Virus record (IMG/VR): IMGVR_UViG_2548876852_000004
Location: 1 to 8,279 of that record
Origin: a virus
Lineage: Duplodnaviria; Heunggongvirae; Uroviricota; Caudoviricetes
DNA length: 8,279 bases
Strand: one strand, 5' to 3'
Under the pieces are notes generated by a model that was not told the DNA's origin, ran no database searches, and worked only from the letters and a program-made list of their open reading frames with translations. This document shows positions 358 to 7,760 of this stretch, piece by piece. Both the position numbers and the translations under genes were made by a program. Each line of letters starts with the position of its first letter. Positions within the stretch are counted from its first letter, which is position 1.

Positions 358-386
358 AGAAAAAACAAAACCCGCCGAAGCGGGTT
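358..386 (-). terminator. rho-independent terminator downstream of hok
   Basis: On the minus strand: stem AACCCGC / GCGGGTT (7 bp, plus coords 369-375 and 380-386) with loop TTCG, followed directly by TTTTGTTTTTT (A-run 358-368 on plus). It lies about 70 nt past the hok stop codon. Confidence 0.7.
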
Positions 387-2168: not shown

Positions 2169-2732
2169 TCATTGGTTCTCCCCCTGTGTCGCTTCTACTG
2201 CGATCTGACTGGCGTATTCGTTAATGGTAACGATAAGTTCTTGCTCGGCCTCATCCAGACAACTACCGATACCTCGCCTGTCCACTTCAGAAGCATCGAA
2301 ATCTGCACGAAGCCTGGCGACCTTCAGGATTGCGGACAACACCTCATCAGGGATTGCCGGAGAGTTGGTTGACGTTTCCGAGATTATCCGAAAATTATTG
2401 GTTGACGAACCCTTATTTTCCCGAAAGTTTCCAGCCTGAAGCATGGCGGCGCGGTGACACCAGATAATCCAGCCAAGCGCCATATCCCATGCCATGTATT
2501 CTCTATCGCCATTTTTTGCTCTGCGGCGATCTACAGATTCCCCGAAACGCTTCTCCATAAATAATTCATAGGCTGCCCGTTCATCCGATACTGATGCCAG
2601 TGATGCCAGTGCAATTTTTAATGCGGTAAGCATGTTGTTTTGATCTTCATCGAGTCCGAACGGTATTTCATCCCGTGATGACTCAATTCCGGTAATCGTG
2701 TACTGTAGCCATTCTTTGGTTAATTCAGTCAT
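2169..2732 (-). CDS. hypothetical protein (187 aa), orphan gene with its own upstream region
   Basis: ATG at 2730-2732, stop at 2169-2171. A 126-bp AT-rich gap (2733-2858) separates it from the upstream gene. No recognisable domain motif by eye. Confidence 0.6.
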   Translation of the reverse strand: MTELTKEWLQYTITGIESSRDEIPFGLDEDQNNMLTALKIALASLASVSDERAAYELFMEKRFGESVDRRRAKNGDREYMAWDMALGWIIWCHRAAMLQAGNFRENKGSSTNNFRIISETSTNSPAIPDEVLSAILKVARLRADFDASEVDRRGIGSCLDEAEQELIVTINEYASQIAVEATQGENQ

Positions 2733-2858: not shown

Positions 2859-3170
2859 TTATGCTTCGGCCTTATTTCTCAGCCATACACAAACAGGACC
2901 ATCTTCGGTGTCATGTATCGAACCGATAAACCATCCCTCACCTTCTGGTCGCTCAGGTTCCCATGCTGAAATATCAGGGCCATCTGCGTCCAGATTAAAA
3001 TCATCTTCATCCATACTACGGATAGCCCACTGAAGATTATTTTTCTCCATCCAGGCGTTAAACTCTTCCGTTGAAATATATTCCCGACCATCACAGAATT
3101 TTTCATATTCAGGATGCGTCCAGCAGCCATATTCATTACGTTCCACTGGCATTTCTTTAATTGCGCTCAT
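2859..3170 (-). CDS. hypothetical phage protein (103 aa, acidic)
   Basis: ATG at 3168-3170 is preceded by a G-rich SD (GGGGGGG) and directly follows the upstream gene stop (TAAATG). Part of a run of tightly packed minus-strand genes. Confidence 0.6.
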   Translation of the reverse strand: MSAIKEMPVERNEYGCWTHPEYEKFCDGREYISTEEFNAWMEKNNLQWAIRSMDEDDFNLDADGPDISAWEPERPEGEGWFIGSIHDTEDGPVCVWLRNKAEA

Positions 3171-3356
3171 TTACCCCCCCTTATTTAATTTTCTACGACA
3201 CTTTTTACAATCATCTGGACTTTCGAATGTATCCGGCTCACGCTCATTGCCAAAATACATCCACCCACCGCAAGTACTTGTTATTTCACCTTCAGCAAAA
3301 TAATGATGCTTTTTCGCCATAAGTGGCCTTGCCCAGCCCGGATTCGTTTTACTCAC
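3171..3356 (-). CDS. small Cys-containing protein (61 aa), possible zinc-ribbon-like
   Basis: GTG start at 3354-3356 is preceded by a strong SD AAGGAGG (spacer 6). GTGA overlap with the upstream gene stop. Cys residues at TSTCGG and CKKC. Confidence 0.55.
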   Translation of the reverse strand: MSKTNPGWARPLMAKKHHYFAEGEITSTCGGWMYFGNEREPDTFESPDDCKKCRRKLNKGG

Positions 3357-3709
3357 TTGTTGCCTCCTTTGCGAAGCTCTGCGACTAACTCGTCACATAT
3401 GTGCGTCAAAGAGCAAAGTTTGATTGCTGGATGTTCGCGCACCATCTCCACACCCTGCGCCCGCAATTCTGCCAGAAAAGCGTAGGGGTCAGTTTTTTCA
3501 CTGTGGTACATGGCATCATAGATAATCATTGCAGCGACACCTGCCTGTCCTGCATCTGTGACGGATATATGCTCAAGGGCTACGGCCATTGCGTGTTTCA
3601 ACCTCTCATTTTCCACCTCAAGCACCACACGATTAGCCTCCAGCTCTTCTATGCGTTTTTTTGCTGCTCCCAGCTCAACACGCAGCTCCTGATAGTTAAT
3701 CTCGCTCAT
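3353..3709 (-). CDS. hypothetical phage protein (118 aa) with N-terminal coiled-coil-like segment
   Basis: ATG at 3707-3709 is preceded by GGGAGGAAGGAGA. ATGA overlap with the upstream 74-aa ORF stop. N-terminal heptad-like region ELRVELGAAKKRIEELEANRVVLEVENERLK. Confidence 0.6.
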   Translation of the reverse strand: MSEINYQELRVELGAAKKRIEELEANRVVLEVENERLKHAMAVALEHISVTDAGQAGVAAMIIYDAMYHSEKTDPYAFLAELRAQGVEMVREHPAIKLCSLTHICDELVAELRKGGNK

Positions 3710-3930
3710 TCTCCTTCCTCCCGCACTGCTGTTTTATATGCCCGAAGCACATGCGATGTTTTTCCTGACACAGTGCTTCTCAGAAAGAAAATTCCACTGG
3801 TGTTTATTACCAGATACGGGTCAGCAAGACGCAGCATATCCAGTATGTGATTATGTTTTCTTGTTTCCAGCACCGTACTGGAAATAAGCATATGTGACAC
3901 GGGGCCGAAATCATGATATCTGATTTTCAT
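3706..3930 (-). CDS. hypothetical protein (74 aa)
   Basis: ATG at 3928-3930 has a modest SD (AGGGTG). Its stop overlaps the next start (ATGA), indicating translational coupling within the operon. Confidence 0.5.
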   Translation of the reverse strand: MKIRYHDFGPVSHMLISSTVLETRKHNHILDMLRLADPYLVINTSGIFFLRSTVSGKTSHVLRAYKTAVREEGE

Positions 3931-3951
3931 ATCATCACCCTGCTGTAAAAA

Positions 3952-4707
3952 TTACCCGTTATCTCCTGTCGTTATTTTCTGTATGACATCACGATGCTTA
4001 TTAATTTCCCGCAGCGCGGCGCATAAGCGCTCCCACTTCTGAACCTGACCTTTTGCCCGGCGCAGCTCGCGGTTAGCCACATGCAGCGATGGTAAAATCA
4101 GACCATCCGGATGCTTTCTGATGAACGACGACTGTGACTGCACTGTGACCGCCACACTTTCAGTTTTAATTTCTTCCTGTGTTTCCGCTTCCCGGACTGG
4201 TAACGCAGCACCTGCTGGCTGAGGAAAGGCCTTACCATCATTTTTCGTTACCGGCGCGGCTTTCGGATCTGCTGGTAAATTCCCCCCCGACATGCAGTAA
4301 CGAAATTTACCGTTCTGATTAACGCGTGCCAGCCGCCCCGTTGCGGTTACCACCGCCAGCGTGGAAGCAACCTTGCGAGTACTGACGCCGAACTTACCCG
4401 CCAGTTCCTCACACGTTTTAGCACCATCCTGACCGATAAACTCAACCATCATGTCTGCGGTAACTTTTGGAGCGACCTCTTCGGTTACCACATCCGGCGC
4501 TTCAGGTTGTAGTGCCTGCCCTTCGGTTACCCCGGCTTCACCTTCGACAGCCAGAAACCAGGTGTGACCCGTTTTATCAACAACGCCATTTTTTTTGAGT
4601 TCCCACAGTTCGTTAAGAACTTCTTCACGGCTGATATCAAGCCGCGCCGCCAGTTCAACAGAATTGGCTTTTCCCATCGCTTTCAGTGCATGCAATACAG
4701 TTTCCAT
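3952..4707 (-). CDS. hypothetical phage protein (251 aa) with two winged-helix-like segments separated by Pro/Ala/Glu-rich linkers
   Basis: ATG at 4705-4707 is preceded by SD GAGGT (spacer about 9). Two HTH-like segments: N-terminal (SVELAARLDISREEVLNELWELKKNGVV) and central (KTCEELAGKFGVSTRKVASTLAVVTATGRL). Sits immediately downstream of the replication genes. Confidence 0.65.
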   Translation of the reverse strand: METVLHALKAMGKANSVELAARLDISREEVLNELWELKKNGVVDKTGHTWFLAVEGEAGVTEGQALQPEAPDVVTEEVAPKVTADMMVEFIGQDGAKTCEELAGKFGVSTRKVASTLAVVTATGRLARVNQNGKFRYCMSGGNLPADPKAAPVTKNDGKAFPQPAGAALPVREAETQEEIKTESVAVTVQSQSSFIRKHPDGLILPSLHVANRELRRAKGQVQKWERLCAALREINKHRDVIQKITTGDNG

Positions 4708-4732: not shown

Positions 4733-5464
4733 TCACATACCCTGACGTCCAACGTTTGACCGCCAGCTCTCCCAGTTAAAATTCACCCAACGACCACCAT
4801 TCATGGTCATACGGTCCATCACCCGATCTCCGAGGAGTGTGCTCATCGCTGCGTGATTCAGGTTCGTCAGCATTCCGACACTACGCATCGAAGCCGTTCT
4901 GCGGTCGACTATCTGGTTCAGCGTGACCTGCTCGTTGCGCGTATCCCGCTGCATGCCAATTTCATCAAGGACCAGAAGGTCAACTCCACAAAGCTCCTGT
5001 AAAAATTTTTCCCCGGACTGGCCGTTGTCGTAGCCGTCATGCAACACGCTCATGACATCGGACACGGTGACGATAATCACGCTTCTCCCCTTCGCCATCA
5101 GCCGATTGCCAATCGCTGCTGCCAGGTGATTTTTACCGGTACCAGGTTTACCGCTGAACACGAAGTTTGTACATCCGGTCATCAATTCATCGGCAATGGA
5201 TTTCGCCTGGCTCAGAGCATGGCGCTGACCGTCGTTCTGCACCCGGTAGTTCCCGAATGAGCACTTCCTGTGAAGCGGCTGGATGCCCGCACGGTTCAGG
5301 ATTTTTTCAACCCGCACCTGATGATTCAGGCGGTTAATCTCCTCGCTGCGTTTTCGTCCTTCAGCAAGTTGCCATTCCCGCCACTCCTCCACCGTCCGGT
5401 ACGGTGGAACCGCCCCCCTGTGGTGCAAGTCTGCGAATACGTTCAAGAACCCCAACTGCCGCAA
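4733..5464 (-). CDS. DnaC-like replicative helicase loader (AAA+ ATPase, IstB/DnaC family)
   Basis: Walker A GKPGTGKNHLAAAIG and Walker B LLVLDEIG. N-terminal region aligns with the DnaC N-terminus as I recall it (IQPLHRKCSFGNYRV...GQRHALSQAK). First in-frame start is TTG at 5462-5464 with no strong SD, so the exact start is uncertain. Confidence 0.85.
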   Translation of the reverse strand: MRQLGFLNVFADLHHRGAVPPYRTVEEWREWQLAEGRKRSEEINRLNHQVRVEKILNRAGIQPLHRKCSFGNYRVQNDGQRHALSQAKSIADELMTGCTNFVFSGKPGTGKNHLAAAIGNRLMAKGRSVIIVTVSDVMSVLHDGYDNGQSGEKFLQELCGVDLLVLDEIGMQRDTRNEQVTLNQIVDRRTASMRSVGMLTNLNHAAMSTLLGDRVMDRMTMNGGRWVNFNWESWRSNVGRQGM

Positions 5465-5480
5465 TGTTTTTCATGACACG

Positions 5481-6443
5481 TCACCCCCTGAATCCCGGCG
5501 GTATTTCAGTGTCCGGTTCAGAAATGTGATTCACGCAACGCTGCGCGGGCGAACGCCCCAGGCGGATAACCAGTTCATCCCATTTTTCCCGGAGTTTTGC
5601 CGGACTCATGATGTTTTTTACCCAGAACGAATCCCGCTGGAGACGCCCAAACATTTCACAAATTTGTCTGTGAGTTCTGCCATCCAGCATCCGCATTGTC
5701 CGCACGTCATTGGCCCATGCAGTCCAGTTGGGTTCTTTCGGTCTCGTGATCTCGCCATCATCGCTGGCCGCCTGCTCGTAAAGACTCACGATTCGTCCCC
5801 AGATCCACTGTGCGCACACCAAATCTTCCTGACTTCCCCACTGGCGTTTTTTCGCACTGAACACAACCGCGTCAGGGTGTCGGGTTAAAAAATCCTGTTC
5901 AGCCGTCTGCGGGTCCGGTTGCGAAGCGTCCGGACAAGAAGATCTTTTATCTGACGGATCAGGTTTTAATACTGACGGATCGGGGTCAATCATCGCCCCC
6001 CTAATCGGCAGTTTGTTATCAACAGTTGATCCATCAAAATTTGACGGGTCAACCGTTGAGGGGGCAATATTTGACGGGTCAACTGTTAACGGGTCATTTT
6101 TTGCCGGGCTAATTTTTCTTTTCGGTTTATATGACTCACGCGCCGCTGCCGCAGCTGCTTCGAGTTTTTCCACATTAAGCCGATAGATATTGCTTACATT
6201 ACGCCCACCGACCTTACGCTCTTCCTTCGTCAGCCAGCCCTCTTTCGCCAGTTCTGCAATAGCCGATTTCACTGTGGATTCACTTCTTGCACCGATCTGA
6301 CGCCGGATAGTTTCAATGGCAGGCCATGACACGCCCTCGTCATTGCTGTAGTCTGCAAGACGGGCCATAACCGCCACCCTGGATAAGATCATGCCGGTGA
6401 AGGCGCACCCTTCCCAGACAAGACCATGAAGCTTGCTGCTCAT
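5481..6443 (-). CDS. lambda O-like replication initiator
   Basis: C-terminal domain matches the lambda O C-terminus as I recall it (WANDVRTMRMLDGRTHRQICEMFGRLQRDSFWVKNIMSPAKLREKWDEL vs lambda WANDIRLMRERDGRNHRDMCVLFRWACQDNFWSGNVLSPAKLRDKWTQL). N-terminal HTH region and a repeat-containing linker. ATG at 6441-6443 is preceded by GGGGG; the tracked ORF starts at an upstream GTG (6458). Confidence 0.85.
   Translation of the reverse strand: MSSKLHGLVWEGCAFTGMILSRVAVMARLADYSNDEGVSWPAIETIRRQIGARSESTVKSAIAELAKEGWLTKEERKVGGRNVSNIYRLNVEKLEAAAAAARESYKPKRKISPAKNDPLTVDPSNIAPSTVDPSNFDGSTVDNKLPIRGAMIDPDPSVLKPDPSDKRSSCPDASQPDPQTAEQDFLTRHPDAVVFSAKKRQWGSQEDLVCAQWIWGRIVSLYEQAASDDGEITRPKEPNWTAWANDVRTMRMLDGRTHRQICEMFGRLQRDSFWVKNIMSPAKLREKWDELVIRLGRSPAQRCVNHISEPDTEIPPGFRG
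6017..6133. repeat. putative phage replication origin inside the O-like gene: three 11-bp palindromic iterons at 30-bp spacing plus an AT-rich tract
   Basis: TCAACAGTTGA (6019-6029), TCAACCGTTGA (6049-6059) and TCAACTGTTAA (6079-6089), the last two each preceded by TTGACGGG, followed by the AT-rich stretch 6094-6133. On the coding strand they encode repeated TVDPSN peptides, matching lambda's ori-within-O arrangement. Confidence 0.55.
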
Positions 6444-6465
6444 AAAACCCCCGAACACCGTGCTT

Positions 6466-6891
6466 TTAGTGCATCACCACAGCATTCCCTGCCGGGCCGC
6501 CGCGATTCATCTGGTCATACAAAACAACCGCTGACGCAACAAAATCATCGACATCCTTCACCAGCCGATCCCTCCGTTCGACGATCTCACGGTAATATTC
6601 AGAACTGTGGCTGCGCATACGGGCCACCAGCAAAGGCGGCATCGCCTTTTCGATCGCCGGTAACAGAGCCTGCATTTTTTCAACAGCATCAGGGGTGTCT
6701 TTATCCAGCCAACGGAAAATTTTCTGGGTATTACGGGCCAGGGCTTCCGGATGGCTGTCGTCATACAGTTCCGGGAACGTCATTCCCAGCTCGAAATACG
6801 CTTTGGTAATTTTCGCAGCCGGTACTTTTTCGCCGTCCGGATGCGCCCAGACATTCATCGCCATGCGGATGTGTTCATGCTTGATTTTCAT
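6466..6891 (-). CDS. YdaT-like (CII-position) early regulatory protein
   Basis: 140-aa ORF sitting between the Cro-like gene and the O-like gene, the position held by YdaT in Rac-type prophages. ATG at 6889-6891 is preceded by SD GGAG (spacer 8). It overlaps the Cro-like stop by 17 nt. Family assignment is from memory and position. Confidence 0.55.
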   Translation of the reverse strand: MKIKHEHIRMAMNVWAHPDGEKVPAAKITKAYFELGMTFPELYDDSHPEALARNTQKIFRWLDKDTPDAVEKMQALLPAIEKAMPPLLVARMRSHSSEYYREIVERRDRLVKDVDDFVASAVVLYDQMNRGGPAGNAVVMH

Positions 6892-7156
6892 GAATCAAGC
6901 TCCTAGAAAGTGGTTGTGTTAACGTTTTGGTATCTTCCAGCTCGGGCCAAATATTCATCCAATCAAAAGGCCTTAGTTGCTGACGTGTAACTTCACCATT
7001 ACTGGCTCGCTCAATAAGGACACATAACGATGCCCCTAACACTTGACCTTTACTCAATGCCTTTCTTAGATAACCGATGCTGGTACCACACTCGCATGCA
7101 AACATACGCTGTTCATCTGACGAAAGAGAATTGAGAAATATTCTTAATTCTTCCAT
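6875..7156 (-). CDS. Cro-like HTH regulator (YdaS-like)
   Basis: 93-aa ORF divergent from the repressor. HTH-like segment CGTSIGYLRKALSKGQVLGASLCVLIERASNGEV. Consensus SD AAGGAG sits 5 nt upstream of ATG 7154-7156. Confidence 0.7.
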   Translation of the reverse strand: MEELRIFLNSLSSDEQRMFACECGTSIGYLRKALSKGQVLGASLCVLIERASNGEVTRQQLRPFDWMNIWPELEDTKTLTQPLSRSLIHENQA

Positions 7157-7181: not shown

Positions 7182-7250
7182 AGAATACCCACAGGTAAAT
7201 AAAAGTCAATACCCACAGGTTGTTTACCTTGCGGTAATCGCATCTATTAT
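7182..7250. promoter_or_regulatory. OR-like divergent promoter/operator region
   Basis: Two copies of ATACCCACAGGT(A/T) at 7185-7198 and 7209-7222, 24 bp apart. Candidate rightward-early promoter on the minus strand: -35 TTGACT (7204-7209), 16-nt spacer, -10 TATTCT (7182-7187). Candidate repressor promoter on the plus strand: -35 TTTACC (7223-7228), -10 TATTAT (7245-7250). The repressor ATG at 7257 has no SD and lies about 7 nt past the -10, suggesting a leaderless mRNA. Confidence 0.55.
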
Positions 7251-7256
7251 TTACCT

Positions 7257-7676
7257 ATGGACAAATATGAATTTAGACGACAGCAACTCATCAAAATTCG
7301 TGATGAGAAATGCGATGGTAAAGCGGTTAACGTGGCCAGAAAGATCGGGCGCGAGCCTTCTTATGTATCAAGAATGTTGTACCCAGAGGGGAAAAAGGGA
7401 AAAAAACGGATCGCTGATGATATGGTGGAGATTATCGAAGAGTCCTTTGGGTTACCCCGGGGATGGATGGATGGTATCGTTTCATCATCAACGAACACAG
7501 CCTCCAGTTATGAAACAAGGGTTCTAACGCCACGACAACGTATTTTTTTAGATCTCTTAGACGAACTGCCAGAAAGTGAAGCGGATAAATTATTAAAAAC
7601 TCTTGAAGAGAAAAAACAGTATTACAATATGATCTACGAAGAAATCCGTAAAAAGAAAGCACAAAACGCATCATAG
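7257..7676 (+). CDS. CI-like prophage repressor, short form without a peptidase domain (RacR/DicA-type)
   Basis: 139-aa ORF with N-terminal HTH (AVNVARKIGREPSYVSRMLYPEGKK). C-terminal LDELPESEADKLL resembles the DicA C-terminus as I recall it. Divergent from the Cro-like gene and flanked on both sides by the same operator motif. Confidence 0.7.
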   Translation: MDKYEFRRQQLIKIRDEKCDGKAVNVARKIGREPSYVSRMLYPEGKKGKKRIADDMVEIIEESFGLPRGWMDGIVSSSTNTASSYETRVLTPRQRIFLDLLDELPESEADKLLKTLEEKKQYYNMIYEEIRKKKAQNAS

Positions 7677-7718: not shown

Positions 7719-7760
7719 TTACCCATGGGTATTTACTTTTTAAATACCTATGGGTATTCT
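7719..7760 (+). promoter_or_regulatory. OL-like operator pair overlapping a leftward-early-type promoter
   Basis: TTACCCATGGGTAT (7719-7732, core TACCCATGGGTA is a perfect palindrome) and ATACCTATGGGTAT (7744-7757). Overlapping promoter candidate: -35 TTTACT (7732-7737), 17-nt spacer, -10 TATTCT (7755-7760). Same motif as the OR-like sites. Confidence 0.55.

Follow-up and report, generated by a model that had tools for sequence, protein, structure and literature searches.

An apparent mosaic of accessory genes at the ren/nin position of a Rac/Qin-type lambdoid prophage of Escherichia coli

Gene content and junctions

The window analysed here is a stretch of viral DNA of 8,279 nucleotides. Five open reading frames (ORFs) lie consecutively on its minus strand at positions 2859–4707 and encode proteins of 251, 74, 118, 61 and 103 amino acids, exactly as the first-pass annotation of this DNA had placed and sized them. 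The most upstream (4707..3952, minus strand, as are all features described below) encodes a protein assigned to the YdaW/DUF1627 family and lies directly 3′ of a DnaC-like helicase-loader gene. It is followed by genes for a basic 74-aa protein of a small stand-alone family (pI 9.6; 3930..3706), an acidic 118-aa protein (3709..3353), a basic 61-aa protein with a GTG start (3356..3171) and a strongly acidic 103-aa protein (pI 4.2, net charge about −16; 3170..2859). The same-strand string continues beyond the block with a gene for an acidic 187-aa protein (2732..2169; phrog_14306, E 1.2e-34), such that this gene and then hok/sok lie 3′ of the four small genes.

The block had been described as packed with stop–start junctions and preceded throughout by Shine–Dalgarno sequences. 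As read from the sequence, the packing is found at three junctions, where the 74-aa and 118-aa genes overlap at ATGA, the 118-aa and 61-aa genes overlap at GTGA, and the TAA of the 61-aa gene is followed without spacer by the ATG of the 103-aa gene; the first junction, between the 251-aa and 74-aa genes, is instead a 21-nt gap without overlap. In other words, coupling is geometrically possible at only three of the four junctions, and the 251-aa and 74-aa genes are not coupled. Purine-rich Shine–Dalgarno-like motifs do stand ahead of all five starts (GAGG, AGGGTGA, GGAAGGAGA, AAAGGAGG and AAGGGGGGG).

The TAAATG form of the last junction is due to a run of seven G residues, identified by sequence comparison at 3174–3180, which takes in the end of the 61-aa gene and the Shine–Dalgarno-like element of the 103-aa gene. 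The G7 run is present in the window and in locus L007, whereas O26:H11 11368 and 2015C-3121 have G6 and therefore an ATGA overlap at this junction; the sequence at the same position is GGGAGGTGG in locus L017 and AGGAGGTAG in locus L022. Sequencing errors in homopolymers could account for the G7 run, with its TAAATG junction, and likewise for a G6 run at about 5413–5418 by which the DnaC-like gene is frameshifted. Elsewhere, 61-aa homologues begin with a 4-nt start–stop overlap with unrelated upstream genes in loci L105 and L110; the overlap is of 8 nt in L124 and, by inference, of 4 nt in L102.

The small ORFs are short and without a Pfam or NCBIfam match, and PGAP disagrees on the start of the 61-aa gene, from which it might be argued that some of them are chance reading frames in spacer DNA. 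This view is barely credible, however, given that every small ORF has a protein family with conserved motifs and a PHROG match, and that Ka/Ks falls within 0.05–0.45. In detail, Ka/Ks against relatives is 0.05–0.13 for the 103-aa gene, 0.06 for the 61-aa gene (against L022), 0.23–0.28 for the 74-aa gene (with Ks saturated), 0.27–0.45 for the 118-aa gene and 0.28–0.48 for the 251-aa gene. Since all five have protein-level relatives and Ka/Ks values well below 1, the comparisons indicate that all are real genes under purifying selection. The GTG start assigned to the 61-aa gene in the first-pass annotation is likewise upheld, in that the peptide GWARP, N-terminal to an internal Met, is conserved, and locus L022 has ATG at the position of the GTG.

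Genomic context and expression

The block follows O-like and DnaC-like replication genes, and in relatives the string goes on to hokD, DUF968, RusA and a Q/DUF1133 antiterminator. This is the place of ren and nin in lambda, in agreement with the nin-region position originally proposed, and the likeness to Rac-like prophages that had also been raised is borne out by a context colinear with racR-ydaS-ydaT-ydaU-ydaV-ydaW. The block is the ren/nin-position part of the early rightward string of a Rac/Qin-type lambdoid prophage of E. coli. The placing of the 251-aa gene directly 3′ of the loader gene is colinear with K-12 Rac and with loci L001–L003 and L136.

With the ydaS-ydaT-ydaU-ydaV-ydaW genes of K-12 Rac, the window shares both order and orientation of repressor, cro/YdaS-like, YdaT-like, initiator, DnaC-like loader and DUF1627 genes. 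There are two differences. K-12 YdaW ends after residue ~154, without the conserved middle and C-terminal helix, whereas the window protein is full length, and everything beyond ydaW is lost in Rac, whereas the window has the four small genes, the 187-aa gene and hok/sok. With the lambda ren–nin region (ren and ninB to ninI, between P and Q), the block shares its position in the early rightward operon and its style, that of many small, packed or overlapping genes which vary among lambdoid phages; a further link to nin is found in locus L110, where a NinB-like gene lies downstream of a 61-aa homologue. Terminators define the nin region of lambda, but terminator-like hairpins are not predicted inside the block. 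Nor does any block protein match Ren or a Nin family by sequence. As the first-pass annotation had judged by eye, none of the five matches NinB, NinD, NinE, NinF, NinG, NinH or NinI in a Pfam search at E<0.1.

A promoter-like site (TTGACT-16-TATTCT; 7209..7182) stands 5′ of the cro/YdaS-like gene and could serve the whole string as its pR, although the promoter and terminator scans give consensus matches only and promoter-like sites are no more numerous than in shuffled sequence. Between this site and 386..369, where the first terminator-like site follows hok, none is predicted on the minus strand, and an Rfam scan gives no RNA family within the block. After induction, a single long message would probably carry all five genes; it would begin at the promoter-like site, cross the ydaT-like, O-like and DnaC-like genes and then enter the block. 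From the geometry of the ATGA, GTGA and TAAATG junctions, ribosomes would probably restart there on the next gene.

The YdaW/DUF1627 protein

The 251-aa protein had been regarded as unmatched, which is not the case, since it falls in a catalogued family. Its PF07789 match scores 284.3 bits, the cut-off being 28.1 (residues 91–245, profile positions 1–155 of 155), its match to phrog_630 has E 2.9e-127, and NCBI lists the identical sequence under E. coli as a DUF1627 protein. Residues 1–154, which span both of the heads described below, are 58% identical to YdaW of K-12 Rac. By these matches the protein is a full-length member of the YdaW/DUF1627 family.

It is probably built of a pair of winged-helix heads and a conserved helix at the C-terminus, with two disordered linkers. 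For the first putative winged-helix HTH head (residues 1–52; 4707..4552), the evidence is an HTH_11 match at residues 3–52, which at 24.1 bits falls short of the cut-off of 25, together with AF2 helices at residues 4–11, 16–23 and 27–39 (pLDDT about 70–80); many close relatives of the protein carry a precomputed PF08279 match. The second putative head (residues 84–137; 4458..4297) is suggested by sub-threshold matches to HTH_PafC at 87–126 and to FeoC at 89–134, by low-confidence AF2 helices at 84–93, 99–106 and 110–122, and by an hhalign alignment in register with the first head (E 4e-4, probability 34%). The two winged-helix-like segments noted in the first-pass annotation are in this way weakly upheld, by sub-threshold matches at 3–52 and 87–134, by three-helix units of low confidence and by the in-register alignment. 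At the other end of the protein, a long helix (residues 206–247; 4092..3967), which AF2 predicts as helices at 206–237 and 239–247, makes up the core of the DUF1627 match. Whatever the head type, this helix is conserved, at a Ka/Ks of about 0.15–0.25 and a Ks of about 0.9–1.0. The AF2 model as a whole has a pLDDT of 46.6, with an alignment of relatives that are 82–92% identical.

Among DUF1627 proteins, heads of at least four types are found on the conserved tail, and Ks differs segment by segment within the gene, which points to intragenic recombination. By this comparison the DUF1627 gene is itself recombinant and modular, its heads being exchangeable and its tail conserved. Co-variation of head type with loader type was considered and rejected, since the same head adjoins both P-like and DnaC-like loaders. 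Sequence and profile searches of the PDB with the 251-aa protein gave no significant match, and in PADLOC-DB it has weak matches of a generic HTH type only. Most likely the protein would bind DNA through its two winged-helix heads, of which there are several allelic types; it would probably also oligomerise through the C-terminal helix and have the role of an exclusion factor or of a regulator specific to the phage.

The four small proteins

All five block proteins match PHROG families, the four small ones only to families annotated as of unknown function. The 74-aa protein matches phrog_1001 (E 8.9e-24) and belongs to a family of 21 representative clusters with lengths of 73–77 aa and a common motif; it has no match in Pfam, NCBIfam, PADLOC or the PDB.

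The 118-aa protein matches phrog_492 (E 6.8e-24) and phrog_368 (E 4e-19), and has a coiled-coil-like N-terminal segment and a C-terminal module in common with Ead/Ea22-like proteins of lambdoid phages. The last ~43 codons of its gene have ~90% DNA identity to genes annotated as ead/Ea22-like, and PGAP names a protein 99% identical to it an ‘eae-like protein’. Full membership of the Ead/Ea22-like family was nevertheless rejected, since Ead_Ea22 (PF13935) scores 18.1 bits, below its cut-off of 27, and over profile positions 75–138 only, such that the resemblance is partial and lies in the C-terminal module. The protein is moreover much shorter than that family, and its gene is located in the rightward operon, in contrast to the location of lambda ea22.

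The 61-aa protein matches phrog_2358 (E 4.7e-31). Across the 13 clusters of its family KHHYF, C29, W32 and REPDTFESPDDC..CR are invariant, and the possible Cys cluster of the first-pass annotation is accordingly seen as C29, C50 and C53, including a CxxC pair, invariant together with H17 and H18 in all 13 cluster representatives. The number and spacing of these His2/Cys3 ligands are compatible with a zinc site, for which the protein is a candidate, and zinc binding would be probable. No relative of this protein was found in the PDB by sequence or by profile.

The 103-aa protein matches phrog_1372 (E 2.3e-55). Its family comprises 160 clusters, all lacking a Pfam domain, with the motif GWF[IV]GSIHDTEDG.VC[IV]WLR, and from its distribution appears as a widespread family of Enterobacterales prophages. 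The AF2 model is confident (pLDDT 82, pTM 0.71) and has no fold match among solved structures; searches of the PDB by sequence and profile likewise gave no significant match. Longer relatives, considered as possible fusions with the 61-aa protein, are instead frameshift extensions or chimeras.

Distribution and independent assortment

Of 5426 complete E. coli genomes, 332 carry the four small genes together at no less than 99% identity, and in loci L002–L019 the 187-aa gene accompanies them at 98–100% identity. In three STEC prophages, those of O26:H11 11368 and O157:H7 Xuzhou21 and the Stx2b prophage of 2015C-3121, the small genes have 99.5–99.9% DNA identity to those of the window and are hypothetical proteins beside a DUF1627 gene, with hokD, DUF968, RusA and an antiterminator 3′. 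The DUF1627 heads of these prophages, however, are of types other than that of the window; the O26 and O157 prophages carry a lambda-P-type replication module in place of the DnaC type; and the STEC prophages have G6 at the 61/103 junction, as against G7, and no IS at hok.

More distant loci give a different picture. Of 80 viral loci retrieved by means of the 103-aa protein, most have 103-aa homologues without the other three small genes, and more than 30 loci have 61-aa homologues without the 103-aa gene. DUF977 and DUF551 genes replace the four small genes in locus L001, and unrelated genes occupy the gap in L032. Since the small genes each occur alone in distant phages and the DUF1627 gene is recombinant, the comparisons indicate a mosaic block, made up of accessory cassettes that are independent of one another, and not a five-part system. 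The cohesive five-gene unit that had first been described is not sustained, in that its genes assort independently in other phages.

Interpretation

The reading that we consider likely is that the block consists of Rac/Qin-type accessory genes, carried on one message, translationally coupled where the junctions permit and encoding proteins that act separately. Because each small gene lacks the others in other phages, the 74-, 118-, 61- and 103-aa proteins would not be parts of one machine, and most likely they would act separately on host targets, in takeover or in counter-defence. Among them the 103-aa protein, being acidic and highly constrained, would be the best candidate for a host-protein-binding inhibitor. 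That the five genes should instead form one cooperating system, be it for counter-defence, for exclusion or as a toxin–antitoxin-like operon, is very unlikely. The shared orientation and tight packing would suit such a system, as would the co-occurrence of the four small genes and the 187-aa gene in the 332 genomes and the finding of the 61-aa and 103-aa genes as neighbours in three backgrounds (the window type, L017 and L022). At greater divergence, however, each gene occurs without the others, a single DNA segment that spread recently explains the high-identity co-occurrence, and the small proteins have no PADLOC match. Within the lineage of the 332 genomes, a joint function of the four small genes is still compatible with these data.

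For the YdaW-like protein, two further roles have to be weighed against that of a regulator or exclusion factor. It may be an accessory factor in replication, a partner of the O-like initiator and helicase loader that might, for instance, bind the origin or modulate loading, as could be argued from the position of the DUF1627 gene directly 3′ of every identified helicase-loader gene, whether DnaC-like or lambda-P-like; plasmid Rep initiators, too, are built of tandem winged-helix heads. Head type is independent of loader type, however, one head type being found beside P-like and DnaC-like loaders, and the protein has no sequence match to any replication family, such that we hold this role to be unlikely. 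Slightly less likely still is that the protein is a relative of lambda Ren, guarding the phage from an exclusion system in the same mode. Its gene does sit at the ren position, directly after the loader gene, and the protein matches phrog_142, ‘Ren-like exclusion protein’, but the E of 6.6e-6 is that of the whole protein, and no single stretch of the match passes alone. Similarly, hhalign aligns the second head in register with Ren (E 0.0036), but with a probability of just 9%, and a common winged-helix fold may be the whole of the resemblance. BLASTP of the 251-aa protein against Ren gives no match and, together with the weak hhalign result, leaves Ren as a positional analogy only. Functional evidence comes from an overexpression screen in which K-12 ydaW, which retains the two heads only, blocked the retron-Sen2 toxin RcaT (bioRxiv 10.1101/2020.06.22.160242), a result at the level of a screen and from another allele.

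Returning to the reading of separately acting accessory proteins, it is rather doubtful that one or more of them represents a phage protein of a new kind, whether for counter-defence or for inhibition of the host. Were this so, the 103-aa protein would be the top candidate, as it is acidic, under very strong purifying selection, widespread in Enterobacterales prophages and confidently predicted to have a fold without a solved match. The two-headed YdaW would be the second candidate, on account of the retron toxin blocked by the truncated K-12 allele. Against PADLOC-DB defence-system models the four small proteins gave no match, and in a literature search by WP accession numbers no papers were found.

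The DNA of the block is already present in hundreds of annotated E. coli genomes, as DUF1627 and hypothetical proteins, and the families are catalogued. As found, therefore, the block is ordinary in kind and of little consequence, and the useful outcome is a clearer map, with mosaic cassettes and a modular DUF1627 protein. Within the dark matter of the early regions of Shiga-toxin and Rac-like prophages, the 61-aa zinc-site candidate and the constrained, acidic 103-aa protein stand out as targets. The paper on Pas sRNAs that names DUF1627 was considered and set aside, those sRNAs being near lysis genes and outside this block.

Position, layout and coding status of the block

The five genes that follow the replication genes form a block that is of an ordinary kind and has been catalogued before; what the first-pass annotation observed is confirmed, and its interpretation is partly supported. 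The ORF list places the five consecutive minus-strand frames exactly where that annotation had them, at 4707..3952 (251 aa), 3930..3706 (74 aa), 3709..3353 (118 aa), 3356..3171 (61 aa, with a GTG start) and 3170..2859 (103 aa), and all five match PHROG phage protein families (phrog_630, 1001, 492/368, 2358 and 1372, respectively). Ka/Ks values, computed against relatives taken from viral contigs and E. coli genomes, are 0.05–0.13 for the 103-aa frame, 0.06 for the 61-aa, 0.23–0.28 for the 74-aa, 0.27–0.45 for the 118-aa and 0.28–0.48 for the 251-aa frame. Judged from sequence, all five are genes.

Ahead of the block lie a repressor-like gene (7257–7676, +) and, on the minus strand, a YdaS/cro-like gene (7156..6875), a YdaT-family gene (6891..6466), an O-like initiator (6458..5481) and a DnaC-like loader (5464..4733), colinear with the order racR-ydaS-ydaT-ydaU-ydaV-ydaW in the K-12 Rac prophage. 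After the loader come, in turn, the block, a 187-aa gene, an insertion sequence and hokD. Relatives reaching further downstream have hokD, then DUF968, RusA, a Q or DUF1133 antiterminator and then tRNAs, with stx2b beyond the tRNAs in one of them; in lambda, ren and ninB–ninI sit between P and Q. Since these two arrangements agree, the proposed placement of the block at the nin position is right. Likewise, where inspection by eye had found no lambda nin counterpart, a Pfam search of all five proteins matches no lambda Nin family.

Pfam yields nothing at E<0.001 for the 139-aa protein at the repressor position (7257–7676, +), whose gene diverges from the YdaS/cro-like gene, and relatives carry different types there (LexA-family, HTH). 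Within the DnaC-like gene (4733–5474, −), a G run at about 5413–5418 has six G in the window and five in two related loci, L001 and L002. As a result of the sixth G, the ATG at 5474 that starts the gene in relatives opens a frame of just 37 codons before a stop, and the main frame starts only at TTG 5464; the cause is either a genuine frameshift in the loader gene or an error in sequencing a homopolymer.

A mosaic of cassettes

The block had been described as five translationally coupled genes. Of 5426 complete E. coli genomes, 332, O157:H7 and O26:H11 among them, carry the four small genes together at a coverage of at least 80%, nearly all with at least 99% identity; this co-occurrence is that of a single segment of DNA that spread recently. 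In more diverged relatives the genes come apart. Homologues of the 103-aa protein that are 84–91% identical lack the 74-, 118- and 61-aa genes in most of the 80 viral loci obtained with that protein as query, and in locus L032 unrelated genes occupy the space between the DUF1627 and 103-aa genes. Homologues of the 61-aa protein (59–79% identical) are found in more than 30 phage contigs without the 103-aa gene, one of them lying 5′ of a NinB-like gene, and L001 has DUF977 and DUF551 genes where the four small genes would be. Because the genes part company in this way, the block is a mosaic of cassettes that assort independently, the usual pattern in this part of lambdoid genomes.

The DUF1627 protein

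The 251-aa protein is a full-length member of the catalogued YdaW/DUF1627 family, scoring 284 bits against PF07789 (cut-off 28.1), and an identical protein is named E. coli DUF1627 protein in NCBI. K-12 YdaW is 58% identical to it over residues 1–154 and lacks the remainder. For the two winged-helix segments suggested earlier (the 'heads') the evidence is weak but consistent: Pfam places HTH_11 at residues 3–52 and HTH_PafC and FeoC at 87–134, all just below cut-off; in PDB, the tandem winged-helix region of Lhr helicase is matched weakly (E 0.017); hhalign aligns the two heads in register (E 4e-4, probability 34%); and an AF2 model, with a mean pLDDT of only 46.6, contains two helix–helix–helix units (4–39 and 84–122) and, at the C-terminus, a long helix (206–247), together with two long linkers of low confidence. 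The enrichment of the linkers in Pro, Ala and Glu was correctly noted.

Alignment of 28 distinct DUF1627 homologues reveals at least four allelic head types attached to a middle part and a C-terminal helix that are conserved. Within one and the same pair, Ks varies several-fold from segment to segment, a sign of intragenic recombination; the O26 allele, for one, is 100% identical in the C-terminal helix and only 47–55% identical in the heads. Head type does not track loader type.

In the literature examined, no function is assigned to any of the five proteins, and DUF1627 serves solely as a neighbourhood marker. YdaW is listed as a predicted transcription factor of unknown function (PMC9308461), and an overexpression screen picked out K-12 ydaW as blocking RcaT, the retron-Sen2 toxin (bioRxiv 10.1101/2020.06.22.160242). 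Lambda Ren holds the same position as YdaW; BLASTP detects no sequence likeness between the two, and hhalign gives a weak match. Most likely, YdaW binds DNA through phage-specific heads and oligomerises through its tail. The small proteins are probably early accessory factors that act separately, each on the host.

The small proteins

The 74-aa family is small and stand-alone, its 21 representative clusters spanning 73–77 aa with a shared motif. The 118-aa protein has a coiled-coil-like N-terminus, and its C-terminal module shares about 90% DNA identity with genes annotated ead/Ea22-like; the protein scores below the Pfam cut-off for that family. The Cys cluster suspected in the 61-aa protein is borne out as an invariant His2/Cys3 pattern across the 13 clusters of its family (KHHYF, C29, W32, REPDTFESPDDC..CR), which suggests a candidate zinc site; no PDB relative was found. 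Against the PADLOC defence models, none of the four small proteins gives a match.

The GTG start of the 61-aa gene is upheld by conservation across the family of the peptide GWARP, encoded 5′ of the first internal Met, and by an ATG at the same position in L022, behind a different upstream gene. At the end of this gene, a G run at 3174–3180 (−) is G7 in the window and in viral contig L007 and G6 in O26 11368 and in 2015C-3121, a strain with an Stx2b prophage; with G6 the protein gains one residue and TAAATG becomes an ATGA overlap. The 2015C-3121 gene also has an extra A in an A-run near codon 15.

Junctions and transcription

A purine-rich Shine–Dalgarno-like motif precedes all five starts, in keeping with the claim of ribosome-binding sites. 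The accompanying claim of stop–start packing holds in part: reading the sequence gives an ATGA overlap (74/118 aa), a GTGA overlap (118/61 aa) and a TAA directly followed by ATG (61/103 aa), but a 21-nt spacer at the 251/74-aa junction, so that coupling is possible at only three of the four junctions. Overlapping junctions are the rule in such regions. Homologues of the 61-aa gene in L105 and L110 start 4 nt inside an unrelated upstream gene, whatever that gene is; L124 has an overlap of 8 nt and L102, by inference, one of 4 nt, and in all four loci the end of the homologue is likewise overlapped by the next gene.

A promoter-like site stands in front of the cro-like gene (7209..7182), and in a simple scan the minus strand shows no hairpin resembling a terminator before 386..369, beyond hok. 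Both are no more than consensus matches, and they would fit a single long early rightward message running from the cro side through the block. A GC-strong hairpin without a U tract (2736–2760, −; ACCGCCC-GAAA-GGGCGGT) lies in the 126 nt that separate the 103-aa and 187-aa genes, immediately 5′ of the start of the latter (2732), and could affect translation or RNA stability. On the plus strand, just after the repressor-like gene, a long perfect hairpin (7720–7756; 16-bp stem, then a T-rich tail) is likely a terminator; a weak Rfam microRNA match there is spurious and produced by the hairpin.

The hok/sok locus

An insertion sequence of 1095 bp (625–1719) lies exactly in the Shine–Dalgarno site of hokD, flanked at 619–624 and 1720–1725 by a target duplication of 6 bp, TCTCCT (AGGAGA on the strand of the gene). 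The element encodes a 362-aa transposase with HTH and rve/rve_3 domains, the ORF extending 51 nt beyond the element end. The element now stands between the coding part of hok on one side and the upstream leader and sok RNA on the other; owing to the insertion, the Hok/Gef toxin ORF (455–649, −) is now about 1.1 kb from the complete sok antisense RNA match (1714–1880, −; Rfam RF01794, 111 bits). L007, 100% identical to the window over 4304 shared bases, lacks the insertion. Downstream of hok, a stretch weakly resembling IsrK, a Salmonella prophage sRNA (365–446, −; 27 bits, gathering score 50, E 0.01), overlaps the sole minus-strand terminator-like hairpin (369–386).
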